Source of the DNA: Pseudomonas phage vB_Pae-SS2019XI
DNA length: 57,567 nucleotides
Reading direction: 5' to 3' (one strand)
Sequence record: MN536026.1
Position 1 is the stretch's first letter; each line of letters starts with the position of its first letter. Of the stretch, positions 2,651 to 55,806 are shown in pieces. The position numbers and the translations under genes were made by a program. A model generated the notes under the pieces. It was given only the letters and a program-made list of their open reading frames with translations. It was not told the origin of the DNA and made no database searches.

Positions 2651-2742
2651 TTTTGTCCATTAAATCAACTGTGAGTTGTATAATCGACAAAATGTTGTAA
2701 AGTTCGCTGCATGGAGAAATCCTCTCACCCGAGGCGCAGCAA

Positions 2743-2973
2743 ATGTCGTGTGGAACCGAACCAACCCTGCAAGACCTGGAAGAGGCCCGTCGGGCCTACC
2801 AGGCGCTCATCCAAGGCAACAAGCCTCGCGTGATCGTTGACCAGAATGGTGAGCGGGTCGAGTTCACTGCTGCAAACGCAGCGCGCCTTTATCTGTACAT
2901 ACAGGAGTTGGAGCGGAAGCTCTGCCCCGCTGGCGTGCGGCGCCCGAATGGACCGATGAGGTTCGTTTTCTGA
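2743..2973 (+). CDS. head-tail joining protein, gpW-like
   Basis: 76 aa, position between terminase and portal, GAGG 8 nt upstream. Residues AARLYLYIQELERKL resemble the W family. Confidence 0.6.
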   Translation: MSCGTEPTLQDLEEARRAYQALIQGNKPRVIVDQNGERVEFTAANAARLYLYIQELERKLCPAGVRRPNGPMRFVF

Positions 2974-4619
2974 TGGGCAGCATCCAGCAGTCGAGTCTAC
3001 TGCTCGACGCGGCACCACCTTCCCACCGAGCAATTGGCGGAGGTTTGGAGGGGGCTGATCGAACCTCTCGCGAGACCATGCTTTGGTATCCGCCTGTGCG
3101 CTCTCCGGACCAAGCGATCAATGGCGGTAAACCGCTTGCAGACGCTCGCGGGCGCGACATTGTCCAGAACGACGGGTATGCCTCCGGTGCAGTCGCGCTC
3201 AATCAAGACAACATCGTTGGCGCACAGTACCGGCTGAATGCCCAGCCGAACTACCGTGCCCTCGGCGTGAGCGAGGGGTGGGCTGAAGACTTCCAAGAGG
3301 TCGTCGAGGCGCGCTTCAACGTACTCGCCGATTCACAGGATTGCTGGCTGGACGCATCTCGCCGCAACACGCTGACCGGGATGGTGCGCCTGGCCGTCGC
3401 GAGTTTCGTAATGACGGGCGAAGACCTGGCTTCTGCGGAGTGGATCAGGGAAGCGCGTAGGCCATGTCGCACCGCCGTGCAGCTTCTTTCTCCGGATCGC
3501 CTGTGTAACCCCGACGGCCGCTCGGACGACAAGTATCTGCGCCGGGGCGTGGCGATCAGTGAGCGAGGTCAACACAGGGGGTACTGGATCCGGAACGGAT
3601 ACCCCAACGACCCCTGGAATGACTCGTACACCTGGAGCTACATCCCTGCGGAGAAACCCTGGGGGCGCAAGCAGATGTTGCACATCGTCGAGCAGCGGCT
3701 GCCGGACCAAACCAGGGGCGTGGCCGACATGGTCGCTGTGCTTAAGCAGATGCGGATGACGAAGCGCTTCCAGGACGTGACGCTTCAACAGGCCGTCGTC
3801 GCAGCTACGTACGCAGCAGCCGTTGAGTCGGAGCTGCCGCCGAACATGGTCTTCGAACAACTCGGCGGCGGTTCTCTCGATTTCGGGCCTATGGCGGGAT
3901 ACCTGAACTCGTACATGGGAGCGCTCAGCTCCTACCTGGATGAGTCGAAAAGCATCCAGGTGGATGGAGTCAAGATGCCGCATCTGTTCCCCGGCACCAA
4001 GCTGAAGATCCAGAGCTTGGCGCAACCGGGGGGTATCGGCGATGGGTTCGAGCAGTCGCTGCTTCGCCACATTGCCGCCTGCTTGGGGCTCTCCTACGAG
4101 CAGTTCACTCGTGACTACACGAAGACGAACTACAGCTCGGCCAGGGCAAGCATGACCGAGACCTGGAAGTTCATGCAGTCCAGGAAGAAGGCGGTCGCTG
4201 ACCGATTCGCCACCTTCGTTTACCTGCTCTGGCTCGAAGAGGAAATCAACGCCGGGAACATCCCGCTGCCACGCGGGAAAAAGGCGTCCTGGTTCTACGA
4301 GCCCCTGGTGAAAGACGCCTTGGGCGCTTGCAGCTGGATCGGCGCCAGCCGCGGGCAGATCGACGAGCTGAAAGAGACACAAGCGGCACTTCTCCGCATC
4401 AAGTCGGGGCTTTCTACATACGAGATCGAGGCCGCCAAACTCGGAATGGACTGGCGTGATCTGTTCGCGCAGCGCGCTCGCGAGGAACGCCTGGCCGCTA
4501 AGTACAAGCTGGTGTTCTCGATGAACGCGCAGCAGAGCGACACGAACGAGGCTCAGCGCACCTTGGCTGATGACCCGGATAACACGAAATCGAACGACGA
4601 AGAGGACGAGGCAGCATGA
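2973..4619 (+). CDS. portal protein, lambda gpB-like
   Basis: 548 aa; conserved blocks (QNDGYASGAVALNQDNIVG; QSLLRHIAACLGLSYEQFTRDY...SSARAS) match the lambda B family; start overlaps W stop (TGATG). Confidence 0.9.
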   Translation: MGSIQQSSLLLDAAPPSHRAIGGGLEGADRTSRETMLWYPPVRSPDQAINGGKPLADARGRDIVQNDGYASGAVALNQDNIVGAQYRLNAQPNYRALGVSEGWAEDFQEVVEARFNVLADSQDCWLDASRRNTLTGMVRLAVASFVMTGEDLASAEWIREARRPCRTAVQLLSPDRLCNPDGRSDDKYLRRGVAISERGQHRGYWIRNGYPNDPWNDSYTWSYIPAEKPWGRKQMLHIVEQRLPDQTRGVADMVAVLKQMRMTKRFQDVTLQQAVVAATYAAAVESELPPNMVFEQLGGGSLDFGPMAGYLNSYMGALSSYLDESKSIQVDGVKMPHLFPGTKLKIQSLAQPGGIGDGFEQSLLRHIAACLGLSYEQFTRDYTKTNYSSARASMTETWKFMQSRKKAVADRFATFVYLLWLEEEINAGNIPLPRGKKASWFYEPLVKDALGACSWIGASRGQIDELKETQAALLRIKSGLSTYEIEAAKLGMDWRDLFAQRAREERLAAKYKLVFSMNAQQSDTNEAQRTLADDPDNTKSNDEEDEAA

Positions 4620-5902
4620 GCGAACTGATCGCCCGCCAAGTGCTCGGGCGCCTGAATATGACCGAGGCGCTGGTTAGCGTCCATGGCATCCCGGAAGTGG
4701 CTGCGGATCTCCGTGCGCTCTCTCTGGCAGACGCTCGACAGGAGAACGCCAAAGCGGAGGAGAGCAAGGCCAGTCTCCTTGCAGCCTATGGCTTTGAGGA
4801 GACCGGAGCCCAAAAGCCATTCGCATTTGCAGCTGGTATCGCTGTGATACCTGTCCACGGCAGCCTCATAAACCGTTTTGGTGCGAGCTGGGGGTATGTC
4901 ACTGGGTACAACTTCATTCGCTCGCAACTGAACGCAGCGTTAGCCGATGACGATGTAAAGGCTGTTGTTTTCGACTGCAACAGCTACGGCGGCGAGGCTG
5001 CAGGGTGCTTCGAGCTTGCGGATGAAATCTACGCAGCACGGGGGCGGAAGCCCCTGACAGCCGTGGTCGACTCCAACTGCTATTCGGCCTGTTACGCCAT
5101 CGCGAGTGCATGCGACCGGGTTCACGTAACCCCGACAGGTGGCGCCGCGAGCATCGGCGTGGTTGCGATGCATATCAGCTTCGAACGCGCCCTGGAAAAC
5201 ATCGGCTTGAAAGTCGAGCTGATCTACGCCGGGGCACACAAAGTCGACGGCAATCCGTTCAGCGATTTGCCCGACAACGTGAGGGCGAACATCCAACGCG
5301 GGGTCGACAAGTCCCGCGACGACTTCGTGGCGGCGGTTGCCCGTAATCGCGGCCTCGATAAGCAGGTAGTCCGGGATACCGAGGCGGCGTGCTATCGCGC
5401 CGACGAAGCCCTGGCTATCGGCCTCATCGACGCAGTATCGACCCCTACACAGGCGGTAGCTGCGTTGCTGTCCGAGCTTTCTGGCTCAACCGACAACCAG
5501 GAGAACACCATGTCTGTACAAACCACCAAGCCGGAGGCCGAAAGCGCGGATCAGCCTGCAGTCACTCCGGTCGACGCTGCGGCCGAGCGCAAGGCTGAGC
5601 AGGATCGCTGCAAAGGGATCCTCAATTGCGAAGAGGCCAAGCGCAACCCCTCCCTCGCCAACCACCTGGCCTTCGAAACCGACATGTCGGTCGAAGCTGC
5701 ACGCAAGGCTCTCAGCGCGTCTGCGCCGAGCACCGACGACTCCTCGTCCGCGGCGAACCCGTTCCAGCAAGCCATGGACAACGACAAGCACCCCAACCTC
5801 GGCGCCGGCGGTGAGGGGGGCGCACCTCAGCTCTCCAAGGCTGACCGGATCCTCCAGGCCCATGGCGCCGCTTCTGGCCGCACCTACGGCGACAACAAGT
5901 AA
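4616..5902 (+). CDS. prohead protease / scaffold, S49 (ClpP-like) family, gpC-like
   Basis: 428 aa; S49 peptidase-like N-terminal two thirds, Ala/Glu-rich scaffold-like C-terminus; position after portal. Confidence 0.8.
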   Translation: MSELIARQVLGRLNMTEALVSVHGIPEVAADLRALSLADARQENAKAEESKASLLAAYGFEETGAQKPFAFAAGIAVIPVHGSLINRFGASWGYVTGYNFIRSQLNAALADDDVKAVVFDCNSYGGEAAGCFELADEIYAARGRKPLTAVVDSNCYSACYAIASACDRVHVTPTGGAASIGVVAMHISFERALENIGLKVELIYAGAHKVDGNPFSDLPDNVRANIQRGVDKSRDDFVAAVARNRGLDKQVVRDTEAACYRADEALAIGLIDAVSTPTQAVAALLSELSGSTDNQENTMSVQTTKPEAESADQPAVTPVDAAAERKAEQDRCKGILNCEEAKRNPSLANHLAFETDMSVEAARKALSASAPSTDDSSSAANPFQQAMDNDKHPNLGAGGEGGAPQLSKADRILQAHGAASGRTYGDNK

Positions 5903-8766: not shown

Positions 8767-9292
8767 CTTTCCTCTGCGGCTGCTCGTATTGAAGCGGCTG
8801 ACCGAACACCTGGAAGGCGTCTACGGCCATGACGAGAACGGGAACCCGTACGACCTCCGTGGGCGCGTATTCCGTGGTCGCACGGTTTTCGGTGCCGACA
8901 CCCCGCTGCCGGCGCTGTCGATACTTGAAGCCCCCAGACCCGACACGCCGATCTACGGCGGCGAAGAAGAGGCCCAGCACGAACGTAACTGGGCTCTCTA
9001 CCTGCAGGGTTGGGTGGACGAGGACAAGGCGAACCCGACTGACCCGGCGCACTGGCTGATGGCAGCTGTCGACGAGCGCCTGGGGTTGATTGTCCGTGAA
9101 ACCAAGGGCGGAGGGCGACCGAAGCCAGTCGACCCGGTCGCTCACCATCTCGGCGGCTTGATTTCCGGCTTTCGCTACGGCCCAGGGGTCGTGCGTCCCG
9201 CCGACAATCAGGTGTCGAGCAAGGCGTACTTCTACATGCCTGTGCAAGTAGGTCTTGCCACTTATGTCGGCGAACCGTATCGTTCCGCCTAA
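8759..9292 (+). CDS. tail terminator protein, gpU-like
   Basis: 177 aa, immediately upstream of the major tail gene. Confidence 0.4.
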   Translation: MADFPLRLLVLKRLTEHLEGVYGHDENGNPYDLRGRVFRGRTVFGADTPLPALSILEAPRPDTPIYGGEEEAQHERNWALYLQGWVDEDKANPTDPAHWLMAAVDERLGLIVRETKGGGRPKPVDPVAHHLGGLISGFRYGPGVVRPADNQVSSKAYFYMPVQVGLATYVGEPYRSA

Positions 9293-9330
9293 ATACAACA
9301 TTTGGTTGATAAAACAACTGGAGAGACATC

Positions 9331-19880: not shown

Positions 19881-19912
19881 GAGAATCAACTAATAGTTGT
19901 GGATAAAACAAG

Positions 19913-39400: not shown

Positions 39401-39430
39401 TTGACACATGGTTCATGTGCTGAGATAAAT
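39401..39430 (+). promoter_or_regulatory. rightward early promoter (PR-like) with embedded operator
   Basis: TTGACA (39401-39406)-N18-ATAAAT (39425-39430). Inverted repeat CACATG-gtt-CATGTG at 39405-39419 lies in the spacer. Confidence 0.5.
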
Positions 39431-39495
39431 ACGCCGTCGGTTTTCAACGGGCGGCATTCGACCCGCCGAACAACAAACGGTTGAGGATTCAACAG

Positions 39496-40005
39496 ATGGC
39501 TAAGAAATTGACCGAGCAACAGCAAGCAGTCGCCGACTTTCTGGCGGCCGCTGGCGTAGAGTTTTCCGTTATTCCGCGCTGTGCGACGAAGCGCGACGAC
39601 TGGGAATGCGACGAATGGGCGCCGCTGTTCCGTCGCGGTTCGGACCGTGAAGGCCACCAGATAGCGCACGCCTATTTCACGGGGATCGGGCACCGTAAAT
39701 CCGAACGGCCGATGCCGCCGGACATCGCCCGACTGGCGCCCCGCATTCTCGCCCGCGTGGAGTGGGAAAAGCGCCACCTTAAGCCGGTAGCGCCGTGCGC
39801 CGCTGACGTTCTTTACTGCCTGCTGTCGGACGCCAACGGCGCCGACCAGAATTTCAACGATTGGTGCGCCGACTTCGGTTATGACCCGGACAGCCGGAAG
39901 GCCCTGGCAACCTATGACGAATGCTCCAAAGTCCTGGCGGACGTGCGGGCGTTTTTCAGCGCCGCCGAACGCGAAAAGCTGGCCGAACTGCTGGAGGGCT
40001 ATTAA
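39496..40005 (+). CDS. hypothetical protein
   Basis: 170 aa from ATG 39496; GAGG 12 nt upstream; first gene of the rightward small-gene operon. Confidence 0.45.
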   Translation: MAKKLTEQQQAVADFLAAAGVEFSVIPRCATKRDDWECDEWAPLFRRGSDREGHQIAHAYFTGIGHRKSERPMPPDIARLAPRILARVEWEKRHLKPVAPCAADVLYCLLSDANGADQNFNDWCADFGYDPDSRKALATYDECSKVLADVRAFFSAAEREKLAELLEGY

Positions 40006-40468: not shown

Positions 40469-40504
40469 TGCCCTCGAATCAACTTTCTATTGAGGTGACA
40501 ACAA

Positions 40505-40786
40505 ATGGAACTAACCGCATATCTCCAGCACGGCAAAGCCGGCGGCCCGTATCGGACCGAGCGTGTCCCGGTAATGGAACAGCCGGCCGAAATTGTCCCC
40601 GCTGCTCGCTCCCGCACCGGCTACGGCAAAGACTTGCCGACCCCGTACCTGATCGACTGGGAAGGGCTGCGCCGCCGGGTCTATGCCGTCTGCTATTCGA
40701 ACGTCGCCAGCTTCTACATCCGTACGAATCGCGACACGGACAACGGCGGCCGGATCTTCGTCACTATCGACCGGGAGGGCGCGTAA
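40505..40786 (+). CDS. hypothetical protein
   Basis: 93 aa; GAGGTGA RBS; preceded by the 21-bp repeat. Confidence 0.4.
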   Translation: MELTAYLQHGKAGGPYRTERVPVMEQPAEIVPAARSRTGYGKDLPTPYLIDWEGLRRRVYAVCYSNVASFYIRTNRDTDNGGRIFVTIDREGA

Positions 40787-42451: not shown

Positions 42452-42480
42452 TTGACACACGAATCATGTGTTTCTATATT
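42452..42480 (+). promoter_or_regulatory. internal sigma70 promoter with operator
   Basis: TTGACA (42452-42457)-N17-TATATT (42475-42480); CACA-cgaatca-TGTG at 42456-42471 in the spacer. Confidence 0.5.
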
Positions 42481-43185: not shown

Positions 43186-43214
43186 CGAATCAACTTTCTA
43201 TTGAGGAAACAACT

Positions 43215-43629: not shown

Positions 43630-44187
43630 TCAGCGGGAGCCCCACGGGAGCCCGTCCGCTTTGAACTCAACAGGAACCGCCCCAAAGTCGAAGAATGGTA
43701 GCTCAAGGGTTACCGTCTTCGACTTTTGCATTTGGGCGATGAACCGAGCGGCGCCGACAATGTGCAGGGCCCCGGTTTCGTAATTCTTCAGCTCCCCGCC
43801 CCATCGCTCGGCGGCGCCTTCGTCGAAGCGCACGCGAATATCACACGTCCCCATGCACCCGAACTGCCCACGCGGCACGCCCACGAAAGCCAGGGCCTTG
43901 CCGCTGGAGTCCTTGCCTACGGTCAACGTCAAGCGCTGCGCCCCCTCATAGGGCGGCGGCAGGGTAACCGCGTCACGCGACCATATGGTGGCGCTATAGG
44001 CTGTGCGGCCACTCATGCGGTCGGGCGCAGCCTGGAATATCCATGTGTCGGGCGACCCGTCGCGCAGGCTCAAGCCTTGATTGCCGCCTGGCCGCGTGTC
44101 CGTCGCATGGTCCGGCGGCGAGCTGGCGCAGCCGCTTAGCGCTGCCACCAGTCCCACCACGGCCAGGGAAAACCGCATAGTTCGCAT
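43630..44187 (-). CDS. lipoprotein (moron; superinfection-exclusion candidate)
   Basis: Signal peptide plus lipobox MRTMRFSLAVVGLVAALSGC; 185 aa; convergent with the rightward operon. Confidence 0.5.
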   Translation of the reverse strand: MRTMRFSLAVVGLVAALSGCASSPPDHATDTRPGGNQGLSLRDGSPDTWIFQAAPDRMSGRTAYSATIWSRDAVTLPPPYEGAQRLTLTVGKDSSGKALAFVGVPRGQFGCMGTCDIRVRFDEGAAERWGGELKNYETGALHIVGAARFIAQMQKSKTVTLELPFFDFGAVPVEFKADGLPWGSR

Positions 44188-44283
44188 TGATCCTTTCTCC
44201 CGTTCGGCGTGCTGTGCCGGCGACCATAGCCGCACCTGGCACAAAATGCCACGGCCGAACGCGGAACTGTGACGCGGGGCGGC

Positions 44284-44466
44284 CTAGTCGCGGGCGACCT
44301 GCTTCAGCCTGGCGGGCCTTGCTTGCTGCACACGTTCACGGAGTCGCTCTAGCTCCAGGTCCTGTTCTACCACGACAGCCCATAGCTCCCGAATGGCGGC
44401 GCGGCACTCGGCCAGTTCATCCCCAAGGCGTGCCGCTGTAGTGCGTCCCATTGCCTGACTCATCAC
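44284..44466 (-). CDS. hypothetical small coiled-coil protein
   Basis: 60 aa ORF immediately left of the AT-rich island. Confidence 0.3.
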   Translation of the reverse strand: MMSQAMGRTTAARLGDELAECRAAIRELWAVVVEQDLELERLRERVQQARPARLKQVARD

Positions 44467-44853
44467 TCACCCCTGCTGAGTACTGGTTATCCATACAGTA
44501 TATTCAGGACCGCATGCGTCGGCCTGTCAAGCTCCAGGGCGCAGGGATGCCGGCCGCCGTATGTGCAATGCATATAGGCGTGTTTCGTCGTGCCAGGTCG
44601 CCGCGTCGCCGTGTTTCGGCGTGCCTGTTTAACTAGAACGTTTATTTAAACCGTATATCTATCACTACCGTTCGTCGGTTTATCGGCCCGTTTACAGGCG
44701 TCGATTAACTGCCCGCCTAAGTGACCGGGTCCCTCCAGGGCCTTTTTTCGGCTGGGCGGGGGCGCTGAGCCGCGATCACGCATTTTGTCGATTTTCCGCA
44801 ACGCCACCTTTGGATTTCGGCGCGTACCCCGTCAAAAGGGCTGGACCCGGAAA

Positions 44854-45129
44854 CCCGGATAATCTGCTCATTCTCTATTTGGACAAAAAATATTTTTCTC
44901 TCCTTTTCCGAATCACTATTTTTTCCGGGACTATCCGGGACAGACTTTTCAGGGAAAATAAAAAGTATAGAGAAATCAACGTTTTGCGGAGTTGAGGAGG
45001 GGGAGGCACTTTGGCTGATTCAACGCAGGTAATTCCGCTGTCCCGGAAAAATGTGAAATTATCCGGGACATCTCAGGAAAATCATCAAAATGGCACACGG
45101 TTCATGTGTCTATAAACACGATTCGTGTG
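44854..45129. repeat. AT-rich island with (T)TATCCGGGAC(A) repeats and two CACA-N7-TGTG sites
   Basis: TCCGGGAC at 44924, 44934 and 45062, inverted at 45040. The 11-mer TATCCGGGACA is at 44932-44942 and 45060-45070, with an inverted ATTATCCGGG at 44854-44863. Operator-like sites at 45094-45108 and 45115-45129. Local GC is far below the genome average. Confidence 0.55.
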
Positions 45130-45230
45130 TCATTTATGTACGGGGAATGGGTCAGTTTTCGATGACTTTTATGCTGCGTCATACACAGAGTCGTAAACGG
45201 CACGATAAACCGATCTTCTGCCCAGCATTT

Positions 45231-45266
45231 AGCGAGCAAAAATAAACCCGCCATGTAGGCGGGTTT
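45231..45266 (-). terminator. rho-independent terminator downstream of primase-helicase gene
   Basis: AAACCCGCC-atgta-GGCGGGTTT 9-bp perfect stem (45244-45266), followed on the minus strand by AUUUUUG. Confidence 0.6.
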
Positions 45267-45284
45267 CGGGGGTGAAAGGGGAGG

Positions 45285-47828
45285 CTACAAGTCGTCGTCC
45301 TCATCATCGTCTTGCTCGCCTTCCATGTACTTGCGGATCTTCTCGGTATCCGGGATCAAATCACCTTCGGCGTTTCTCCAGGTGAACTTCTCGGGGTTTC
45401 GCGAGTAGAAGCGATACCGCTCCTGCCCGATCCGGACGCGCCCGATTGGAATGAACCCGTGGTTCTCCAGGATGTAGTTGAGGGTCTTTGGTGCCGGCAG
45501 CTCGAAATCGTAGTCGTCGTTCATCGTTAGGCTTTCGAGCCGGGTGATGTTCAATAGGTCATCCGAGATGTCAGGGAATTCCTTCGACTCGATTATTTCG
45601 CGGATGCCTCGTAGTTCCTTCGGCTGGGACACCCGCACCATGTAGCGGAATGCCGGGGTAATGGGTGCATTGCCATCCGGGTGGAAATCGGGACTCTGCT
45701 CTAGCTGCAGCATCCACTGCCGAAGTGCCGGTGCTGACTCGTCCAACGCGGCGTACAGATCGTTGTAGTAGTCCGGGTTCTCCTCCATGAACTCCGCGAG
45801 CTTTTCGCGCTGTTGCCATTGTGAGAAGAGGACGCAGTAGCGCCGCTCGTTGTCTTGCAGTGGCAGGGCCTTGCGGTAGTTACTGAAGAGTAGGTAGGAG
45901 GTCGTGTTCTCGACGTTGTAAGGGTCGCGGCCCTTCGCATGGATCTCGATCACCCGGTTCGTCACCAGCGGCTTGAACCTGTTCAGCACGTCGTAGCGGT
46001 TGTGGCCGACCATGTGGACTTCTTCGAAAGCGAGCACGCATTGACCCTGGGCCCAGGCGGTGAAGCTGGACTCCAGGATGTGGGCGTTGGCCATCGTCAC
46101 GTTGCCGATCCCCATGACGGCGCGGAGCAGGAAGGCGAAGAACGATTTACCGTCACCTGGGACGCCTTGCAGCAGGATCGCCCAGTTGACCCTTTTACCT
46201 GGGTTCTGCACGACGTACGACAGCCAGTCGAGCAGGATGCGCTGCTCCTTCGGGTCCTCCAACATGTGGGCAATGTGGGCTCGCACCCGCTTTATGTTGA
46301 TCTTGTCGATGGGCCGGATGTTCTTCGGCTTCGGCGGGATGTGGTGCTCGGGGTAGGTGTTGGCCCATTGAGTGCCGTTGTAGATGAAGACCCCGTCACG
46401 ACCAGGTGCGTACATGCGTCCGTGCACAGTCGGGATTTTGTAGACGTTCAGCGCGAGGTGGCAGGCGGTACTGACTGGCGCCGACTTCCCATCCAGAACG
46501 TCCTTTTTGGTCATTGCGTGCCGATCGTTGATCGCGTTGAAGCCTTGGGCTGAGACCGCATGCTTGTGGACGGTGTGGTAGAACCGGTCCTCGCTGGCGT
46601 CATAAACCCAGTCGCGGCACCACCGCGGTAGCTCTTTGGTATTGATCTCGTAGGCCAGAGATTTCTTCACTTCCGCCAGCGGGACCTTGTTGCCCGTCAA
46701 AGCCACCAGTCGGTCTCTTGCGATCTCGGCGAGGCTAGCTCGGGAGAGGTGGTCGATTTCGGCCCGCCGGGTGATCTTCGCTGCCTCGTTCCATTCAGCT
46801 CGGTCTTTCGCCATCGCGAACTGGTTGCGGAGTTCGACGGCGGTTTCAATCGCCTTCGTCTCCGCAGCCTCCTTCGCGAGTTGCAGGATCAGTCGGGCAG
46901 TAACTGGGGCGCGGCCCTTGTCGCTGATATCGAAGGTGTCCCACTTCCGGTTCAGCGCATCGGCGTCGTAGTTGTCTGCGGACTCCGACCATTCGTGCCA
47001 CATCTCTCGGCCGATGTCCTCTCCATCGTACTGGTGGTAGAGCGCCATCCCGATCTGGAGCCAGGTGTCGTAGTCTTCTGCACCTGGAACGAGCATTAGG
47101 CGCTGCTGCAACTCGGCCTGCGACAGATTCACAGGCTGGGCGTCGGCCGCAAACGGATCGTCCTTGTCTATCGCTGCAGAGCCGGGTTGCCTGTTGATGC
47201 GAGAGCCTCGGACCAGCGTCCAGCCCCGTTTCTCTGCTTCTGATTCGAATAAACGAACAAGCCCTCCAAGCTTTTCCGGCTCAATCAGCGGGAGGTCGTC
47301 AGCTGACGTGTTGAGCGGGCTCTCCTCACTGGTCCAGCGGTACGGCCGGTGCGTTTCGGGGTGCTTGTGGAAGGCTACGAATTGCTGGCCATCGCCGAGA
47401 ATCTCGATTCGGCAGCGCTCTTGCCACTCGTTGAGGTAAGTCTTCGAGGTGATTTTTCGGAAGGGCTCGTCTGTGCGGTAGAGCAAAAGGCGCTTGGGCG
47501 GCAACCCAATACGGACGGGGGCTCGTCCTAAATTCTCATGGCACCAGTCTTCAAGCAGATCCGCCAACTCGTCATCGAGCACGTCGATGTCTACGGCTGG
47601 GGTATGCGCGGCGAGGATCCCCACGCCGTGGTTCTCCAGACCTGACTCCATCCAACGCGCCAACTGAGCTTGGCTCGCACGGGTTTTCTGCCAGTCGTCG
47701 AACCCCGGTGCCTTTTTGCCAGGGGCAATAGGGACGATGTTGTACCCGTGGTCGATCAGTGTCTTGCCGTGCTGCGCCAGGTAGCCGCCCTTTATCACCT
47801 GGGTGCGGTCTTTCGTGGCTCGGTCCAT
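45285..47828 (-). CDS. primase-helicase (prim-pol N-terminal domain + D5_N + P4-type SF3 helicase)
   Basis: About 847 aa. N-terminal GYNIVPIAPGKKAPGFDDWQ fits a prim-pol domain. Walker A GVPGDGKSFF. ATG 47828 has GAGGTGG upstream (the table's GTG 47834 is the alternative). Ends DDDEDDDL. Confidence 0.8.
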   Translation of the reverse strand: MDRATKDRTQVIKGGYLAQHGKTLIDHGYNIVPIAPGKKAPGFDDWQKTRASQAQLARWMESGLENHGVGILAAHTPAVDIDVLDDELADLLEDWCHENLGRAPVRIGLPPKRLLLYRTDEPFRKITSKTYLNEWQERCRIEILGDGQQFVAFHKHPETHRPYRWTSEESPLNTSADDLPLIEPEKLGGLVRLFESEAEKRGWTLVRGSRINRQPGSAAIDKDDPFAADAQPVNLSQAELQQRLMLVPGAEDYDTWLQIGMALYHQYDGEDIGREMWHEWSESADNYDADALNRKWDTFDISDKGRAPVTARLILQLAKEAAETKAIETAVELRNQFAMAKDRAEWNEAAKITRRAEIDHLSRASLAEIARDRLVALTGNKVPLAEVKKSLAYEINTKELPRWCRDWVYDASEDRFYHTVHKHAVSAQGFNAINDRHAMTKKDVLDGKSAPVSTACHLALNVYKIPTVHGRMYAPGRDGVFIYNGTQWANTYPEHHIPPKPKNIRPIDKINIKRVRAHIAHMLEDPKEQRILLDWLSYVVQNPGKRVNWAILLQGVPGDGKSFFAFLLRAVMGIGNVTMANAHILESSFTAWAQGQCVLAFEEVHMVGHNRYDVLNRFKPLVTNRVIEIHAKGRDPYNVENTTSYLLFSNYRKALPLQDNERRYCVLFSQWQQREKLAEFMEENPDYYNDLYAALDESAPALRQWMLQLEQSPDFHPDGNAPITPAFRYMVRVSQPKELRGIREIIESKEFPDISDDLLNITRLESLTMNDDYDFELPAPKTLNYILENHGFIPIGRVRIGQERYRFYSRNPEKFTWRNAEGDLIPDTEKIRKYMEGEQDDDEDDDL

Positions 47829-47836
47829 GCCCACCT

Positions 47837-48100
47837 CTACGCTTCAGCGGACTGAGGGGTTTCTGTCCATGCACTGCCGACCAAGGCCTTGAGCGCCAAA
47901 TCGACCTTCAGGCTGAGGCGGCCCCTGGACATAGCGACGTGCAGGTGATTGGGGTGGCATCCGACGGCTTTACTCAGCACAGGTAACGAGCCGCTGGCGT
48001 TGTGGAAGAGGGCTGCTCTACGCAGGCGATAGATCAGGAGCATTCTGCGTCGCTCTTCGTCGCTGAGCGCGGGATCTGTCACCCAGGAAGGGAGATTCAT
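47837..48100 (-). CDS. Cro/YdaS-like HTH regulator
   Basis: 87 aa from ATG 48100 (GAGG 9 nt upstream). HTH-like LSKAVGCHPNHLHVAMSRGRLS. Divergent from the replication operon. Confidence 0.45.
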   Translation of the reverse strand: MNLPSWVTDPALSDEERRRMLLIYRLRRAALFHNASGSLPVLSKAVGCHPNHLHVAMSRGRLSLKVDLALKALVGSAWTETPQSAEA

Positions 48101-48181
48101 AGTTACAACCTCTGGTAGAGTGGACAATCTCAAGTTGATAGCCTACAGTCGGCCCTGTTAGAGATCAATCGATAATGAGTG

Positions 48182-48210
48182 TTGACCAAAACAACTGTTT
48201 GTTGTTTTAT
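48182..48210 (+). promoter_or_regulatory. candidate replication-operon promoter with perfect palindromic operator
   Basis: TTGACC (48182-48187)-N17-TTTTAT. The spacer is AAAACAAC-tgttt-GTTGTTTT, a perfect 8-bp inverted repeat at 48188-48208. Confidence 0.45.
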
Positions 48211-48276
48211 CAATAGGCGATTGAGCATAACCCGCCAACACCTTTCGGCGGAAATTCAACCCCCTGGAGACATGCA

Positions 48277-50045: not shown

Positions 50046-50663
50046 ATGGCTCGTGAGATCGTCAAAAAGGTAAAGAATGCCGTTCTGTACTCCGATGGTT
50101 GCATCCGTATCGATAACGTTCGGGCGTCGTATCCGCACTTGGATAAAGCTTGGGCGAAAAACGAGAGTGACCGGCCGAAGTTCAGCATCACCGGCCTGGC
50201 ACCCAAGGAAACGCACGAAGAAGCCAAGAAGCTCCTGGTGGAAGAGATCAATAAGCTGCTGACCTCCAGCAAGATCGGCAAGCTGGCTTCCGAACACAAA
50301 TTCGTTCGGAACGGCGACGACTCTGGCAAAGAAGAAGCGGAAGGCCACTGGATTATCAAGGCTTCGGAGAACCCGGATCGCCGCCCCTCCTGCAGGACGC
50401 CTCGCGGGACTGTGATGACCCCGGAAGAAACCGCCAAGAAGATCTACCCTGGCTGCTGGGTGAACATCCTTGTGCGCCCTTGGGCCCAGAACAATCAACA
50501 TGGCAAGAAAATCAACGCTAACCTGATCGCGGTCCAGTTCGTTCGCGACGGCGAACGGTTCGGTGAAGGCGCTATCGATGATGAGGATGTCTGGGACGAA
50601 CTCGACGACGCCGCGGATGATGGATACGACTTCGGGGACGAGGGCGGCGACGACGACCTCTGA
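50046..50663 (+). CDS. DUF2815-type phage ssDNA-binding protein
   Basis: About 205 aa from ATG 50046 (GGTGA upstream; GTG 50037 is the table start). N-terminal VKNAVLYSDGCIRI...YPHL. Acidic tail GGDDDL. Confidence 0.5.
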   Translation: MAREIVKKVKNAVLYSDGCIRIDNVRASYPHLDKAWAKNESDRPKFSITGLAPKETHEEAKKLLVEEINKLLTSSKIGKLASEHKFVRNGDDSGKEEAEGHWIIKASENPDRRPSCRTPRGTVMTPEETAKKIYPGCWVNILVRPWAQNNQHGKKINANLIAVQFVRDGERFGEGAIDDEDVWDELDDAADDGYDFGDEGGDDDL

Positions 50664-50717
50664 TACAACATACTGGTGTTATAACTACAGGGCGTCGTAA
50701 TTGACGCTCCAGGGTTT

Positions 50718-50746
50718 CGCCCGACTCCGGTCGGGCGCCTTTTCTT
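50718..50746 (+). terminator. intra-operon terminator/attenuator between SSB-like and polymerase genes
   Basis: CGCCCGAC-tccg-GTCGGGCG 8-bp perfect stem followed by CCTTTTCTT. Confidence 0.5.
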
Positions 50747-50756
50747 GGAGGCTTGC

Positions 50757-52805
50757 ATGACTACCCTCCGCCTCGACTGGGAAACAGCCAGCGAGATCGA
50801 TTTACCAAAATACGGACTCGACGTTTACTCAGCGCACCCTTCGACACGGATCCTCATGGGTGCGTACCAGTTCGATAGTGGTCGCGTTCAGCATTGGGAC
50901 ACCGCCGACACGGATCGCATGCCCGCCGAGTTGCGCGAGGCCTTGGAAGATCCCCACGTCATCAAAAAGGCTTTCAATGCGCAGTTCGAACGCGTCATCG
51001 CTCGGCGCGTAGCAGGGTTGAAAGTCCCTTACCAGAACTGGCGTTGCACCATGGCCCTCGCATACCAGCATTCGTTTGTCGGCACCTTGGGCGACATTGG
51101 CCAACAAATGGGGTTGCCGGATGAGATGCTCAAGTCGAAAGAGGGAGACAGGCTCATCCAACTGTTCTCCAAACCCCAGCGCATAACCAAGAACCAGCCG
51201 CACCGATGGCGCGACTCATTCACCGACCCGGACGAGTGGGAACGATTTGGAGCTTACAACGTCCAGGACGTCGTATCTGAAGGGTTCATGGAGGAGGTGC
51301 TGTCACGCTACGAAATGCTTGCCTCCGAATGGCAGCTCTACGAGCTGGACCAGCGCATCAACGACAGAGGCCTTCCAGTCGACATGGAGTATGTGGAGAG
51401 CGCAATCCACATGGCTGCGAGGCGGAAAGCCGAGTTGTTAGAGGAAATGGCGGAACTGACTGGGCTCGCCAACCCCAACTCGACCTCTCAACTCCTACCG
51501 TGGCTGCAGGATAGGGGCTATCCCTTCTCTGACCTGGTCAAGGACACGGTGAAAAAGGTACTGCGCGAGGACAAACAGGCACGAGACGACGAGGCAGAAG
51601 GTTTCTTGGATGACGATGCAGTCAAGTGCTTGAGGCTGCGGTTGAATGCGAGTCGTACAAGTACCTCGAAGTACACAGCCTTGAAGGTAGCTGTGGGCCG
51701 AAAGAGCCGGATCCGGTTTTGCTTTCAGTTTGGCGGGGCCAGTCGGACGAACCGATGGTCGGGGCGACGGTTCCAGCCTCAGAACCTTACTCGTACCCCC
51801 AAGGATATTGAGCCCAACGGCGGCGATCACTATCAACTTGCGTTTACGACCGAACTGATTCGCCGCGGGGATTATGACGGGCTATCGATGATGATCGGTG
51901 AGCCAATGGATGCCCTCGCTGGTTGCATCAGGTCTGCTATTCGCGCGCCTCGCGGATACGAACTACGCGTTTGCGATCTTTCGTCTATCGAAACCTGCGT
52001 GATTGCGTGGCTGGCTGGCTGCGTGCGCCTCCTCAATGTGATCCGTGGAGGGAAAGACCCGTACAAGGACTTCGGGACCGTCCTTTTCCGCAAACCCTAC
52101 GAAGAGGTGACGAAGAAGGAGCGAGGGGACAGTAAACCTGCCGTTCTTGGCTCCGGCTATCGATTGGGTGGGGGAGACCTCAAGGAAGGTAAGCGCACAG
52201 GGCTATGGGGTTATGCCGAGAATATGGGCGTCGACATGAGTCGTGAAATGGCGCACCAGGCTACCAAGCTATTCCGAGACACCTATCACGAAATCCCCAA
52301 ACTTTGGTTTGCGCTGGAGAGAGCGGTTGAGCGCTGTTTGAAGACATCACAGGAACAGGTATGCGGCCCACTTCGGTTTATCCATAGGCCTCCGTACTTG
52401 TTGGTACGACTGCCGTCGGGGCGTTTCATGCACTACTTCAAGCCCAAGATCGTTATGCGTACGCCACCGTGGGGCGGCGAAAAGAAAAAGAACTTCAGCT
52501 ACATGGCCCAACCGCAAGGCAAGAAAACCTGGGTGCGCATCACAAGCCATGGCGGAAAGCTGGTGGAGAACTTCGTCCAGGCAATCGCTCGCGACATCCT
52601 CAAAGAGGGTTTGCTGGCGGCGCATGCCGCTGGTTTCAACATCGTGGGGCATGTGCATGACGAGATAATCACTCTGCAGCCTGTCGATGACCAAGAGCAC
52701 ACCCTGGACGCCTTGAAAACCTGCATGACCCGAAAATTGGACTGGTGCCCTGATCTGCCACTCGGAGCCGCCGGTTGGTGTGGACCTTTTTACATGAAGG
52801 ATTGA
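50757..52805 (+). CDS. DNA polymerase, family A (no 5'-3' exonuclease domain)
   Basis: 682 aa from ATG 50757 (GGAGG 6 nt upstream). Motif A RVCDLSSIE, motif B around KDPYKDFG...K, motif C VGHVHDEI. Confidence 0.85.
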   Translation: MTTLRLDWETASEIDLPKYGLDVYSAHPSTRILMGAYQFDSGRVQHWDTADTDRMPAELREALEDPHVIKKAFNAQFERVIARRVAGLKVPYQNWRCTMALAYQHSFVGTLGDIGQQMGLPDEMLKSKEGDRLIQLFSKPQRITKNQPHRWRDSFTDPDEWERFGAYNVQDVVSEGFMEEVLSRYEMLASEWQLYELDQRINDRGLPVDMEYVESAIHMAARRKAELLEEMAELTGLANPNSTSQLLPWLQDRGYPFSDLVKDTVKKVLREDKQARDDEAEGFLDDDAVKCLRLRLNASRTSTSKYTALKVAVGRKSRIRFCFQFGGASRTNRWSGRRFQPQNLTRTPKDIEPNGGDHYQLAFTTELIRRGDYDGLSMMIGEPMDALAGCIRSAIRAPRGYELRVCDLSSIETCVIAWLAGCVRLLNVIRGGKDPYKDFGTVLFRKPYEEVTKKERGDSKPAVLGSGYRLGGGDLKEGKRTGLWGYAENMGVDMSREMAHQATKLFRDTYHEIPKLWFALERAVERCLKTSQEQVCGPLRFIHRPPYLLVRLPSGRFMHYFKPKIVMRTPPWGGEKKKNFSYMAQPQGKKTWVRITSHGGKLVENFVQAIARDILKEGLLAAHAAGFNIVGHVHDEIITLQPVDDQEHTLDALKTCMTRKLDWCPDLPLGAAGWCGPFYMKD

Positions 52806-52806
52806 T

Positions 52807-53094
52807 ATGAACGAGTACGAATTTCCGAACGAACTTGAGGTGGATGTAGAGCGACCGGCTAAGGAATTCGCGAAAAAGCGTGGGTGGTTTGTTGTAAAGC
52901 TCATGCGGTGCGACATCGACTCTATGCCGGACGACCTTTTTCACCGCCGTGGCGTGACGATGTACATCGAGTTCAAGCGGCCAGGGGAGCAGCCCTCCAA
53001 GAAGCAGCGTAGTCGACATCGAGAGCTGCGGGCCCATGGAATCCCGGTTCACGTTTGCGACAATTTGGACACAGCGTATGACCTCTTGGCATGA
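52807..53094 (+). CDS. VRR-NUC domain nuclease
   Basis: 95 aa; D...EFK PD-(D/E)XK core (RCDIDSMPDD...MYIEFKRPGE). Confidence 0.6.
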   Translation: MNEYEFPNELEVDVERPAKEFAKKRGWFVVKLMRCDIDSMPDDLFHRRGVTMYIEFKRPGEQPSKKQRSRHRELRAHGIPVHVCDNLDTAYDLLA

Positions 53095-54787
53095 GTGGAT
53101 ACAAGCTGCTTTCGCCAACTGCGAACGGGACCGGGACTCCCTGCACGACTACCAAGAGCACGCCGTCGAGTTCCTCAAGCTCAACCCCTTCAGCGCTTTG
53201 TTCATCGACCTGGGTCTCGGGAAGACGGTTATTTCGCTCACAACTGTGTTGGACCTTGTCTGCGCGCTTGAAACGGATTGCACCCTGGTCATTGGACCCT
53301 TGAGGGTCGTGAACGAGACTTGGCCCACTGAGATTGGGCTGTGGCGCCATACCTCCGCCTTGTCGATGCACCGTATTCGAGAGGAACCCTTGGTGGAACA
53401 TGTCAGGGCGGCTGGCGCGAAGGCCAGGGCGCTCATCAAGGAGCAAGGATCTTCTTCGGAAGAAGTCAGGGCATTCCTCATTCGTCACCGCACCCTTGAA
53501 CTGCGTCGAAGAGCGAAGAACTTAGGCTACAGCAGAGGCGACATCAGAAAGTACGCCCTGGCGCGGATCGGGGAGGCAATGCTCAAGCCGGTGTCTGAGC
53601 AAGAGAAGAAGCTTTTCGTCGTAGCAGCCCGCCAGAAAGCGGCAGCAGAAGCGGTACGGGAGCAGAAGCGCCTTAACCCGGCGAGCATCTACATCATCAA
53701 CCGTGAACAGGTGGAGTTCCTGGTGAATGCTTGGGGCAAAGACTGGCCTTACGACACCGTAGTAGTGGATGAGTCGAGCAGCTTGAAGGATCACCGGACT
53801 AACCGCTGGAAGGCCCTACGTAAGGTTCGGCCGTTCATCAAGCGCATGCACCAACTGACGGCGACACCTGCCGCAGAGAGCTATCTACACCTATTCGGGC
53901 AAATTGGTTTGCTTGATCTCGGTGAGCGCCTCGGCAGAACTTACACCGAGTTCACCGAAAAGTACTTTAAACACAACAAGTACGACTACAGCTATAAGCT
54001 GCTCCCCGGCGCGGCCGAGGAGATCGCCAGGGCGATTTCCGATATCTGCTTAACCATGAAGGCTGAGGACTACCTATCGCTCGAAAAGCCAGTATTCGAA
54101 GTTCGCAGGATCGATCTGCCGGAAAATGCAGCTGCTATCTATCGTTCAATGGAGCAGGACTCTATCGTGGAGCTGGAAGAGCGGGAGATCACGGCAGACA
54201 CCGCCGCGGCTCTGTCCAGCAAGCTCTTGCAGATCGCATCGGGTGTACTGTACGAAACCTTCTTACTCGAAGACGCCGATACCCACGACTTCAACAAGGT
54301 CAAGCGTGTTCACCAGGTGCATGACAAGAAGGTCGAAGATCTGAAAGACCTGGTCGCAGAACTCGGCGAAGAGAGCGTCCTCGTGTCATACCACTTCAAG
54401 GCGTCACTTGACCGTCTGCGGAAAGCCTTCCCCCACGCCGTGGTCATGGATAAGGAAGGGGCGTGCGTGAAGAGGTGGAATGATGGCAAGATCAAAATGC
54501 TGTTGGTCCACCCGCAAAGCGCTGGGCATGGGCTTAACCTCCAGAGGGGAGGGCGGCACATAGCTTTCTTCGACATCCCCTGGTCGCTCGAACTCTACCT
54601 TCAGTTGATCGGACGACTGGCGAGGCAGGGACAGAAGTATGTCGTCTACGTGCACCATCTCGTAGCGAAAGGGACGCTAGACGAGGCGGTTATGCAGTGT
54701 TTGCTGGAAAAGCGCAACGGCCAGGAGGAGTTGTTCAAAATGCTCAAAGCCCTTCGGCGTCGGTCCAGAATCCACAAAAAGTTGTAA
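53078..54787 (+). CDS. SNF2-family helicase
   Basis: About 569 aa. DYQEHAV...LGLGKT motif I, DESSSL motif II, and C-terminal helicase motifs (QRGGRHIAFFD...GRLARQGQ). The start could instead be ATG 53036. Confidence 0.8.
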   Translation: MTSWHEWIQAAFANCERDRDSLHDYQEHAVEFLKLNPFSALFIDLGLGKTVISLTTVLDLVCALETDCTLVIGPLRVVNETWPTEIGLWRHTSALSMHRIREEPLVEHVRAAGAKARALIKEQGSSSEEVRAFLIRHRTLELRRRAKNLGYSRGDIRKYALARIGEAMLKPVSEQEKKLFVVAARQKAAAEAVREQKRLNPASIYIINREQVEFLVNAWGKDWPYDTVVVDESSSLKDHRTNRWKALRKVRPFIKRMHQLTATPAAESYLHLFGQIGLLDLGERLGRTYTEFTEKYFKHNKYDYSYKLLPGAAEEIARAISDICLTMKAEDYLSLEKPVFEVRRIDLPENAAAIYRSMEQDSIVELEEREITADTAAALSSKLLQIASGVLYETFLLEDADTHDFNKVKRVHQVHDKKVEDLKDLVAELGEESVLVSYHFKASLDRLRKAFPHAVVMDKEGACVKRWNDGKIKMLLVHPQSAGHGLNLQRGGRHIAFFDIPWSLELYLQLIGRLARQGQKYVVYVHHLVAKGTLDEAVMQCLLEKRNGQEELFKMLKALRRRSRIHKKL

Positions 54788-54851
54788 ATTCCCCTTGTTA
54801 TTGATCCCGCATGCCTTAGAATGCCAGAAAACCACCAACGAGGAGGTCGGT

Positions 54852-55517
54852 GTGGATACTACTTTCAGGGCACGTCTTGATCAGGCGTGCGACGACTCGC
54901 CGAGCGTCCCCGAGAAAGGTAAGGGGCGGCAGGTCGTGATCGCGAACGCGATCAATGTGACGCAGGAGGCCGTTCGCAAATGGTTTGCGGGCGAGTCGAC
55001 TCCGCGACCGAGCAAAATGCGTGAGCTGGCCAAGTTCCTTGAAGTCGATGAAGGCTGGCTGGCACTGGGAATCAAGCCGGAGCTTGACCGCAAAGAGAAG
55101 CGTCGCGCCGCGATGAACCGTGATGGCGCAGTCTACCTGGTGGCAGGCCTCATCCTTCTTGAGGGCGGAAGTTGCGCGTTCCCTGCGGAGAATGATAAAC
55201 GCGGGTCCTGGGTCGACCTGTACTCGATCATCCGCGGGCAGCAGGTCGCGCTTCACATCAGCTTGGCGCGGGCAGTATCAGACAACTTATTTGAAGTTAT
55301 CGTCCCTCGCCAGTATGACGATGTCACCTGCATAGCCGTTATCCCGATTGGCGTGGGTGAGTTCAAGTTCATTCAACTGCCGGCAGAACAGATAGAGCAG
55401 CTTAAAACCAAGAAGGCGGGTGACTTCGCACTCACCATCGAGCGGGCCGGCACGAAGTTCCTTTCCAATGGCCATCCGTGGCCGCGATTCAAGACATTCG
55501 GAGAGATCCATGGCTAA
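54852..55517 (+). CDS. HTH (Cro/CI-type) regulator with non-peptidase C-terminal domain
   Basis: 221 aa from GTG 54852 (AGGAGG 5 nt upstream; the table start is a TTG). HTH RQVVIANAINVTQEAVRKWF. No S24 Ser/Lys dyad is recognisable. Confidence 0.45.
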   Translation: MDTTFRARLDQACDDSPSVPEKGKGRQVVIANAINVTQEAVRKWFAGESTPRPSKMRELAKFLEVDEGWLALGIKPELDRKEKRRAAMNRDGAVYLVAGLILLEGGSCAFPAENDKRGSWVDLYSIIRGQQVALHISLARAVSDNLFEVIVPRQYDDVTCIAVIPIGVGEFKFIQLPAEQIEQLKTKKAGDFALTIERAGTKFLSNGHPWPRFKTFGEIHG

Positions 55518-55740
55518 CACACTCGAAACCTCTGACCTGGAAACCCCTTGGGTGCTGCTGAAAGACGTTTGCCACTGCTACGGGGTGAACTTCGAAAGCG
55601 CGAAGAATAAAGTCGCTTTGGGGACCTTCGAAGTCCCCACTTACAAAGTAGGCCGGCAAATCGTTATCGCAAAAGAAGTTCATCGGGAGCACTTCCGCCG
55701 CAAAGCGGAGGAAGGTTTGCGGGCCTTAAAATCAACTTAG
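55510..55740 (+). CDS. PrtN-like (pyocin activator family) DNA-binding protein
   Basis: 76 aa; KDVCHCYGVNFESAKNKVALGTFEVPTYKVGRQIVIAKEV matches the PrtN/AlpA-like pattern. Confidence 0.5.
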   Translation: MANTLETSDLETPWVLLKDVCHCYGVNFESAKNKVALGTFEVPTYKVGRQIVIAKEVHREHFRRKAEEGLRALKST

Positions 55741-55806
55741 TGTTGTAACTGTAATCGAAAGTTGATTTTATCTGTTGGGATATCAGTCTGCTGCGAGGGT
55801 TTTAGA

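Follow-up and report, generated by a model that had tools for sequence, protein, structure and literature searches.

A dispersed 19-bp palindrome as the likely binding site of an Xre-type regulator in the Chi-like Pseudomonas phage vB_Pae-SS2019XI

Several described systems of short, repeated or palindromic sites bear comparison with the one reported here. The operator of phage 434 reads ACAA-N6-TTGT, and the C-terminal domain of repressors of the phage 186 CI type assembles into a wheel of dimers. In the case of the P1 C1 operators, the conserved inverted repeats of phiC31 and the KorA/KorB system of RP4, one element-encoded repressor serves many dispersed operators. The start-associated sequences of the cluster K mycobacteriophages are asymmetric, lie a fixed few nucleotides from the start codon and face in a single orientation, and the stoperators of phage L5, said to have been described by Brown et al. 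in 1997, are reportedly asymmetric 13-mers with an orientation fixed to transcription, scattered over 20 or more sites. PraR, an Xre-family regulator of Rhizobium and Azorhizobium that acts as a repressor, has a helix-turn-helix (HTH) of the cro/C1-like kind (residues 19-73) and probably also a domain for multimerisation (PMC4149787), and its consensus, obtained by SELEX, is CAAC-N5-GTTG (PMC5527310). In this study, we have analysed the DNA of Pseudomonas phage vB_Pae-SS2019XI (sequence record MN536026.1; the window is the whole stretch of 57,567 bp), and we describe a dispersed palindrome with the core CAAC-N5-GTTG, whose copies are quite likely to be operators at which the phage's own Xre-type HTH regulator would silence dispersed promoters and provide prophage immunity.

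Enrichment, anatomy and linkage of the palindrome

A sequence-only reading of this genome had reported at least 14 copies of an interrupted palindrome, (A/T)CAAC-N5-GTTG(A/T). All of the copies that it listed are present, including the one-mismatch copies at 28876, 37029, 40479 and 43190 and a degenerate pair in 38560-38610, and their number is exceeded, since further copies are centred at 2691, 48112/48131, 48217, 50672, 54778, 55758 and, weakly, 32719; the total is ~24 units at 17 loci in the window. WCAAC-N5-GTTGW (W, A or T) occurs exactly ten times (at 2665, 9295, 19886, 24345, 28665, 32731, 38409, 39470, 48191 and 55732) against 0.08 expected from shuffled sequence, and the bare core 12 times against 0.91; with all arms and spacers of 0-12 considered, CAAC-N5-GTTG is the top-enriched palindrome with 4-bp arms in the genome (p = 3e-8). 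Because intergenic DNA is more AT-rich, the test was repeated on it alone (7.0 kb, stretched 15 nt into the gene ends), and nine exact copies were found against 0.08 expected, with a maximum of 2 in 1000 dinucleotide shuffles. The AT-rich composition of intergenic DNA is therefore not the source of the enrichment. Three core matches fall in sequence annotated as coding: those at 7559 and 33152 have GC spacers and are ascribed to chance, and the copy at 38410 lies, as judged from the G+C content at third codon positions (GC3), upstream of the true gene start, and is hence non-coding.

The full unit is a 19-bp palindrome, WWWCAAC-N5-GTTGWWW, with half-sites AATCAAC or ATACAAC that are inverted and have their centres about one helical turn apart; in the position matrix, the CAAC and GTTG arms are bordered by W flanks and separated by a free, AT-rich spacer with A/T at its centre. 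Units abut at exactly 19 bp in six pairs (2672/2691, 32719/32738, 38567/38586, 48112/48131, 48198/48217 and 55739/55758), several single sites have a further CAAC at exactly +19, and the spacing between exact sites and their weaker partners, taken over 37 genomes and loci, peaks sharply at 19 bp (25 cases against 1.7 expected). Among close relatives, substitutions amount to 1.6% in the arms and 4.7% in the spacers, and two of the arm changes go toward the consensus. The flanks are mirror-symmetric over 59 oriented sites from 29 genomes and, with ACAAC and TCAAC halves read along transcription, seven window sites are arranged as had been claimed, seven in the opposite way and five symmetrically, so that an orientation with transcription is not upheld. 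All together, the comparative data show that the motif is non-coding and real.

The gene of the proposed binding protein lies at 54852-55517 on the plus strand, between the helicase and small-terminase genes, and its product of 221 amino acids has an Xre/Cro-CI-type HTH (~residues 20-75) and a long helix, with a PD-(D/E)XK nuclease-like fold in its C-terminal domain. The N-terminal domain (HTH_3) superposes on the P22 c2 and 434 repressors; the C-terminal domain has a homing-endonuclease-like fold, and alignment of the family shows no conservation of the canonical catalytic (D/E)xK motif. Homologues with 29-100% identity are encoded on 41 viral contigs (IMG/VR), and CAAC-N5-GTTG is found in every one of them, with 151 copies against 16.8 expected in 588 kb, being the top palindrome in many of these loci over a G+C range of 44-65%. 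Burkholderia phage AH2 (gp70, 45% identical) has ~10 sites with a strong TGTTGTT half, and in Achromobacter phage AchV4 (gp78, 44% identical) there are 14 exact cores, where 1.2 would be expected, and once more pairs at 18-19 bp. Of the 33 distinct homologues on viral contigs, 32 have the recognition helix (S/T)QEAVRKWF without change; only AH2 departs from it, combining SQEGVRKWF with a variant site. Of 23 prophage loci from bacterial genomes, those whose helix reads xE[A/S/G]xRKWF contain 37 sites against 3.4 expected, whereas those with divergent helices (NETVSKWF, IETIRKWF, ANTVHKWI, LETVRKWA, PNSVHKWV and others) contain 4 against 3.0 expected, the classes having been drawn after the data had been seen. 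Thus, as far as comparison of sequences can show it, the motif is linked to the 54852-55517 gene and to its recognition helix, and it is very likely the binding site of the encoded protein.

The window is the complete, circularly permuted genome (~60% G+C) of a siphophage of the Chi-like (Casjensviridae) type, with the small-terminase gene spanning both of its ends. Its capsid protein has 65-70% identity with those of Serratia phage Smarc1, Pseudomonas phage UF_RH7, Pectobacterium phages MA11/MA12 and Achromobacter phages AXY1/phiAxp-2, and its gene order is the same as in these phages; for the first 20 kb of the window, no close DNA relative was found among sequenced phages. UF_RH7, Smarc1 and AXY1 have the backbone and the entire replication module in common with the window, and possess neither the HTH gene nor the motif. 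An integrase gene (56010-57044, minus strand) and the HTH gene are present in the window and not in its published virulent relatives, and the HTH gene is linked to an integrase in most loci. Prophage contigs with 93-99% identity exist, and an annotated protein of Pseudomonas aeruginosa, which is the host of the window phage, is identical to the HTH protein over its full length.

The suggestion that the motif is the site of a phage HTH regulator, put forward by the sequence-only reading for two proteins, is supported for the 54852-55517 product, given co-occurrence, covariation of helix and motif, and autoregulatory sites, and not for the Cro-like protein (47837-48100), which is conserved in motif-less relatives and is therefore an unlikely binder. 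The ParB-like protein (36002-37018) was set aside, since the motif tracks the HTH gene. With the HTH domain as query, no homologues other than those of phages and prophages were found. The whole protein, compared with solved structures as a single sequence and as a profile, gave generic HTH matches only, and matches in NCBIfam were all below threshold; the HTH domain alone found only 2 matches in a set of 5.8 billion proteins, without a link to PraR, and a tblastn search of plasmids recovered enterobacterial and Marinobacter HTH genes, none of them rhizobial. In the case of AH2, a repressor of the phage 186 CI type has been suggested for gp70 via HHpred (PMC3483164). Term searches of the published accounts of AchV4, AH2 and the homologue-encoding Rhodobacter phages found no repeated palindrome or motif described, the sole match to 'palindrom' in the account of Serratia phage JS26, which is not known to encode the regulator, was the title of a reference on clustered regularly interspaced short palindromic repeats (CRISPR), and a literature search on Casjensviridae repressors and operators gave no relevant match.

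Sites, promoters and neighbouring features

Across the family, 73% of 119 sites fall in the 12% of sequence that is intergenic. The distance from the site centre to the next start codon ranges from 0 to 383 nt, with a median of ~53 and no preferred value, and only ~7 of the ~24 window sites end 10-25 nt before a start, the short distances in the window being due to tight gene packing. In this regard, the sequence-only reading is borne out on enrichment over shuffled controls and not on an association with, or a positional bias toward, start codons. When promoters are predicted with an E. coli-type consensus, the best sigma-70-type promoter at 59 oriented intergenic sites scores 8.41 bits in the sense direction and 5.54 bits in the antisense direction (Wilcoxon p = 1.6e-6), and the site, being palindromic, adds equally to the scores of both strands. 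The site centre lies within -43 to +17 in 42 of 46 predicted promoter-site pairs, with classes at -38 to -43 (21 cases), -19 to -23, -9 to -12 and 0 to +17. The motif as a fixed promoter element was rejected, there being no conserved -10 or -35 hexamer at a set offset, and the upstream and downstream flanks being symmetric.

Several positions are kept across genera, namely the 5' side of the regulator gene, the junction of the single-stranded DNA-binding protein (SSB) and DNA polymerase genes, the positions ahead of the lysis cassette and of the major tail gene, the terminase/gpW junction and the divergent early region beside the primase operon. Upstream of the regulator gene, 1-2 sites at 15-140 bp are conserved in nearly all of the 41 related loci, often as GTTGACA, the right arm thus forming part of the -35 hexamer; counted from the start of the regulator, distant relatives have a site at +825 to +881, behind the small gene that comes next. 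In the window, a one-mismatch site (54769-54787, centre 54778) is located just upstream of the regulator's own promoter, TTGTTA-16-TAGAAT (54795-54822), and a tandem pair (55730-55767, centres 55739 and 55758) sits where the small gene 55510-55740 ends, ahead of gene 55807.

Among the structural genes, a tandem pair at 2663-2700 (centres 2672 and 2691, AATCAACTGTGAGTTGTAT and AATCGACAAAATGTTGTAA, 19-bp spacing) lies between the large terminase and gpW genes, where a weak promoter, TTGTAT-16-TAAAGT, extends across the two of them; in AH2, too, this junction has a site. The site at 9293-9311 (ATACAACATTTGGTTGATA), 20 nt ahead of the major tail protein start at 9331, is centred at ~+12 of a promoter-like TTGCCA-17-TATCGT (9255-9283), and AchV4 has a site at the corresponding junction. 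Ahead of the tail assembly chaperone gene (19913), the site at 19884-19902 (AATCAACTAATAGTTGTGG) is centred at ~0 of the predicted promoter TTGGCG-17-GAGAAT, and ahead of the lysis cassette (24382, spanin-like; 24777, endolysin), the site at 24343-24361 (TCTCAACCAAATGTTGATT) is centred at ~+2 of a promoter-like TTGCCT-17-TATCAT (24315-24343), with sites at equivalent pre-lysis positions in both AH2 and AchV4. Further along, a strong site (centre 32738) and a weak abutting CACC...GGTG unit (centre 32719) at 32710-32747 lie just 3' of a strong leftward promoter, TTGACA-17-TAAATT (32783-32755, minus strand), at ~+10 and ~+29, and the tandem pair at 38558-38595 (centres 38567 and 38586, 19-bp spacing), which follows a terminator-like hairpin 3' of gene 38622-38969, is overlapped by a weak promoter, TTGTGT-16-TAGTAT.

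In the divergent early region, for which AH2 and AchV4 have sites in the equivalent place, a tandem pair of weak sites (48103-48140, centres 48112 and 48131) lies over the leftward and the second rightward promoter. The best site of the window, centred at 48198, and a weaker abutting unit at 48217 (48189-48226) occupy the rightward early promoter TTGACC-17-TTTTAT, the former in its spacer and the latter over its predicted start point; both the perfect 8-bp arms (48188-48208) and the location of this copy inside a promoter had been recognised before.

At the SSB/polymerase junction, a one-mismatch site (50663-50681, centre 50672) directly follows the SSB stop codon and is succeeded by TGTTATAAC (extended -10-like), a terminator-like hairpin at 50718-50737 and the DNA polymerase gene; at least eight distant relatives also have a site there. 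The layout of stop codon, CAAC site, -10-like TA-rich hexamer, GC-rich hairpin with T-run and ribosome-binding site (RBS) is conserved in the window and in four related loci (L026, L027, L036 and L044), and suggests either an internal promoter under regulation or an attenuator, serving the polymerase gene. Two prophage contigs, L010 and L011, otherwise 98% identical, give no blastn match (E <= 1e-20) to window positions 50663-52849, the stretch with the DNA polymerase gene; one junction of this mismatch is exactly at the SSB stop codon beside the 50672 site and the other is at 52849.

The remaining sites of the window lie in 5' leaders inside operons. An exact site at 28663-28681, with no recognisable promoter, holds in its spacer the ATG (28672) of the leftward gene 27989-28672, a start that GC3 backs, and a one-mismatch site (CAAA...GTTG) at 28875-28893, again without a recognisable promoter and non-coding by GC3, stands in a leftward operon after a GC-rich hairpin. 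The one-mismatch site (CAAT...GTTG) at 37027-37045, identical in three close relatives, ends 9 nt before the start of the ParB-like gene (37018, minus strand), and has no recognisable promoter either. The exact site at 38407-38425 is upstream of the MazG-like gene (minus strand; true start probably 38365 or 38314), and the low GC3 above ~38360 places it outside coding sequence. In the exact site at 39468-39486, ~40 nt 3' of the start point predicted for the 39401 promoter, the right flank GAGG is the RBS of gene 39496. Before gene 40505, a one-mismatch site (CAAC...ATTG) at 40477-40495, with no promoter, has a third CAAC exactly at +19, and its ATTG arm is GTTG in two close relatives; a one-mismatch site of nearly the same sequence as this 40486 copy is found at 43188-43206, before gene 43215 (GTG start).

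Models based on the longest open reading frame overcall the 5' ends at 38366-38536 and 28822-28959, where GC3 is low until ~38360 and ~28870, respectively; the MazG-like gene probably starts at TTG 38365 or at 38314, and the small gene at GTG 28821. A coding reading of the sites at 38416 and 28884, with a shared peptide (PQKQQTVD / PQIQQTFD), was rejected on account of the low GC3 and of better starts downstream. The promoter-less copies at 28663-28681, 28875-28893, 37027-37045, 38407-38425 and 39468-39486 have a common extended A-rich sense strand, AGA(A/T)ACAACAAA(C/T), which reads as (ARN)n triplets, like the Pseudomonas Hfq/Crc 'CA motifs' that control translation. A bias in orientation is limited to these five asymmetric copies, which all face alike with respect to the gene; they are too few for a claim, and chance may account for it.

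A second palindrome is shared by the strongest sigma-70-like promoters of the window, which have TTGACACAYGRWTCATGTG, that is, ACACG-N5-CGTGT embedded in the -35 hexamer and spacer (39401-39419; 42452-42470; 32765-32783, minus strand, in part; and 39007-39034, minus strand). ACAC-N7-GTGT occurs in 5 copies against 0.34 expected, with a tandem pair at 45090-45133 in the gene-poor stretch beyond the primase gene, and the counterpart in AH2 is a set of five promoters of the form TTGACAC-N9-GTGTC(A/G)CCTAnnnT. The TTGACACAYGRWTCATGTG palindrome is probably the operator of another regulator. The gene-poor stretch itself (44178-45285) comprises 1.1 kb without a convincing gene, with G+C down to 0.56, adjoins the end of the primase gene at the Smarc1 cos position, and holds several inverted repeats (45039-45070, 45088-45135) as well as, at 45244-45266, a hairpin that resembles a bidirectional terminator. 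Genes 38622-38969 (minus strand) and 39496-40005 diverge from a 527-bp non-coding region in which AGGTTTTTCAAGTAAG occurs as four exact direct repeats, 35-44 bp apart (39090-39221; none expected by chance). This iteron-like array is possibly an origin of replication, or else an array to which the ParB-like protein binds. The motif-less relatives have enriched 8-bp palindromes of other sequence: ATGGCCAT in UF_RH7 (L001 and L002) and Smarc1 (L008 and L009), with 11-13 copies against ~1.1 expected, and CTGGCCAG in AXY1 (L006 and L007), with 20 against 3.8; these could be regulatory sites, or sites related to methylation or restriction.

The proposed regulator and its alternatives

In the mechanism that we infer, which takes in physical binding, repression as against activation, cooperativity, a roadblock role and a role in lysogeny, a dimer of the 54852-55517 protein would read the half-sites WWWCAAC and GTTGWWW, with one dimer per 19-bp unit, and at abutting units two dimers would bind cooperatively through the C-terminal domain. 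Each of the many separate host-type (sigma-70) promoters would need an operator of its own, and occupancy of the -35 hexamer, spacer, -10 hexamer or start point would shut the core promoter at most loci. Sites at the regulator's own promoter would provide autoregulation, and the promoter-less sites inside operons, just before the RBS, would act as roadblocks to elongating RNA polymerase, so that one protein might control nearly the whole genome through ~17 promoter or intergenic loci. The effect of the regulator is probably repression in the main. The linkage to integrase and the absence of the gene from virulent relatives make prophage silencing or immunity the simplest role, and we incline slightly to the view that the protein is the repressor that maintains lysogeny.

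A number of observations weigh against this proposal. The helix classes were defined post hoc, and two loci with the helix QEAVRRWF, which have 0-1 sites, are exceptions to the covariation of helix and motif. The regulator gene is co-oriented with its neighbours inside the replication-to-packaging gene string, with no classical divergent immunity region. The promoter predictions rely on an E. coli-type consensus, and there is no sigma-70-like promoter, or only a marginal one, near seven window sites (28672, 28884, 37036, 38416, 39477, 40486 and 43197), the scores at 39477 and 43197 being only 5-7.5 bits. The 21 sites centred at ~-39 lie where class II activators bind too, and activation at some promoters is thus possible. 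Finally, the strongest promoters of the window (39034, minus strand; 39401; 42452) have the different palindrome described above, and their core promoters are free of CAAC sites; there must hence be another regulator, which could be the primary immunity repressor.

The same protein might bind the sites mainly as an activator of lytic growth or as a temporal switch, serving for instance middle or late genes from a class II-like position at ~-39, rather than as a repressor of lysogeny. The class at -38 to -43 would suit such a role, as would the location of the gene at the replication/packaging junction, a frequent place of late activators, the presence of sites before structural and lysis genes, and the regulator's own site in the window, which is centred at ~-51, outside the core promoter. 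However, neither the distance nor the orientation between site and promoter is fixed, many sites lie on the spacer, -10 hexamer or start point, where binding blocks RNA polymerase, and the bound protein would mask the -35 hexamers of the -39 class, which are close to consensus as they stand (TTGACA, TTGACT). Virulent relatives that lack the gene must still express the same late genes, and this, together with the linkage of the gene to integrase in most loci, makes activation a rather unlikely main function. It is very unlikely that another phage protein is the binder, be it the Cro-like protein or the main candidate, the small excisionase/PrtN-like product of 55510-55740, which travels with the regulator and whose homologues are found in AH2 and in most motif-bearing IMG/VR loci and are absent from motif-less relatives. 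No homologue of 55510-55740 was detectable within 10 kb in the motif-rich prophage loci L058, L063, L064, L070 and L071 (3-7 sites each), the Cro-like gene is conserved in phages without the motif, the inverted half-sites one helical turn apart suit an HTH dimer of the Cro/CI type, and the motif follows the recognition helix of the 54852-55517 family.

Two further readings, both raised in the sequence-only reading, place the function of the motif elsewhere than in the control of promoters. As an element of the mRNA, acting as a hairpin or as an A/C-rich leader that tunes translation or binds an RNA-binding factor, it would account for the promoter-less copies (AGAAACAACAAAC) that read as (ARN)n repeats, for the A-rich strand being the sense strand in five of five asymmetric promoter-less copies, and for the seven window copies that end 10-25 nt before a start codon, together with the three that overlap the RBS. 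But the predicted hairpins range from 0 to -4.4 kcal/mol, mostly no better than those of shuffled sequence, and seven of the eight single-arm variants (CAAA, CAAT, ATTG, GATG, GTAG, GGTG and CCAC) lose pairing with no compensating change. Moreover, the family as a whole has neither a fixed distance to the start nor a strand bias, and the motif is kept in hosts of three proteobacterial classes and tracks a DNA-binding helix, and we regard translational control as most unlikely. As a recombination or module-boundary sequence for gene exchange, perhaps aided by the nuclease-like C-terminal domain with its homing-endonuclease-like fold, the motif would explain that junctions with close relatives fall within 30 bp of a site at 32692, 39498-39503, 40509-40511 and 50663, and that the 40486 and 43197 copies have ~30 bp in common. 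These junctions are four of ~33 distinct ones in the window, as compared with five contig segments of close relatives; ~29 of the 33 have no site, and most coincide with gene ends. With the (D/E)xK motif not conserved, and with positions relative to promoters and to the regulator gene whose conservation would be unexpected for a recombination site, this reading is barely credible.

Through the assignment of the motif to the 54852-55517 protein, a widespread family of phage and prophage HTH proteins, annotated so far only as 'transcriptional regulator' or 'putative repressor', would gain a function, a target on the DNA and a regulon; among the hosts of phages that have the family are Pseudomonas, Burkholderia, Achromobacter, Klebsiella and many alphaproteobacteria. 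The assignment offers, in testable form, an account of how the temperate phages in the Chi-like (Casjensviridae) group might silence a genome with many separate promoters and, if true, names the regulator gene to delete or the sites to mutate for obtaining obligately lytic phages for therapy, the use in view when AH2 and AchV4 were isolated. Structural work could start from the strict pairing of sites at 19 bp and from the nuclease-fold C-terminal domain, and the consensus common to PraR raises the question of regulator exchange between phages and their hosts.

Comparison with known systems

The start-associated sequences of cluster K, to which the motif had been likened, are similar in being short repeats near the starts of a subset of genes; the window motif differs in being palindromic, 0-383 nt from starts and without a consistent orientation, and the likeness does not go further. 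The stoperators of L5 and other cluster A phages are closer, with many dispersed sites, mostly in short intergenic gaps, some of them promoter-less inside operons and able, in principle, to block elongation. Unlike them, the window sites are palindromic, have no orientation bias and for the most part overlap promoters; they belong to a phage of a Gram-negative host, and their repressor, to the extent tested, is not from a related family.

With P1 C1, phiC31 and RP4 KorA/KorB, the proposed system would share the co-ordination of many transcription units by one repressor, while the protein families and the site sequences are different, and we know of no layout of abutting dimers at 19 bp in any of the three. 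In the case of PraR, the site consensus is identical to the phage motif, the proteins being compared by description only; PraR, on the other hand, regulates, from the chromosome, genes for quorum sensing, biofilms and R-bodies, and is relieved by the small anti-repressor CinS or by 2-oxoglutarate. As for the operators of 434, P22 c2 and lambda, the resemblance extends to two half-sites in inverted orientation at a distance of about one helical turn, an AT-rich spacer under little constraint, an HTH_3 protein and sites that overlap promoters, autoregulatory copies included, and the ACAAC half resembles the ACAA of 434. The differences lie in the number of sites (~24 at 17 loci genome-wide, as against two or three operators in one immunity region), in the strict 19-bp tandem spacing and in the C-terminal domain, of PD-(D/E)XK nuclease-like fold rather than an S24 peptidase.

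Taken at its fullest, and only tentatively, the comparison suggests a previously undescribed silencing system, in which a repressor that joins a Cro/CI-type HTH to an oligomerisation domain of nuclease fold might, through pairs of 19-bp operators at each of the dispersed promoters and through promoter-less roadblock sites before RBSs, let an otherwise virulent Chi-like backbone live as a prophage. Such a system would be a palindromic, Gram-negative counterpart of the stoperators, with a specificity in common with PraR hinting that one was recruited from the other. In form, and by analogy with the systems described, what we propose is an operator and repressor of the 434/P22 type that would have been expanded to a genome-wide regulon like those of P1 C1, phiC31 and RP4 KorA.

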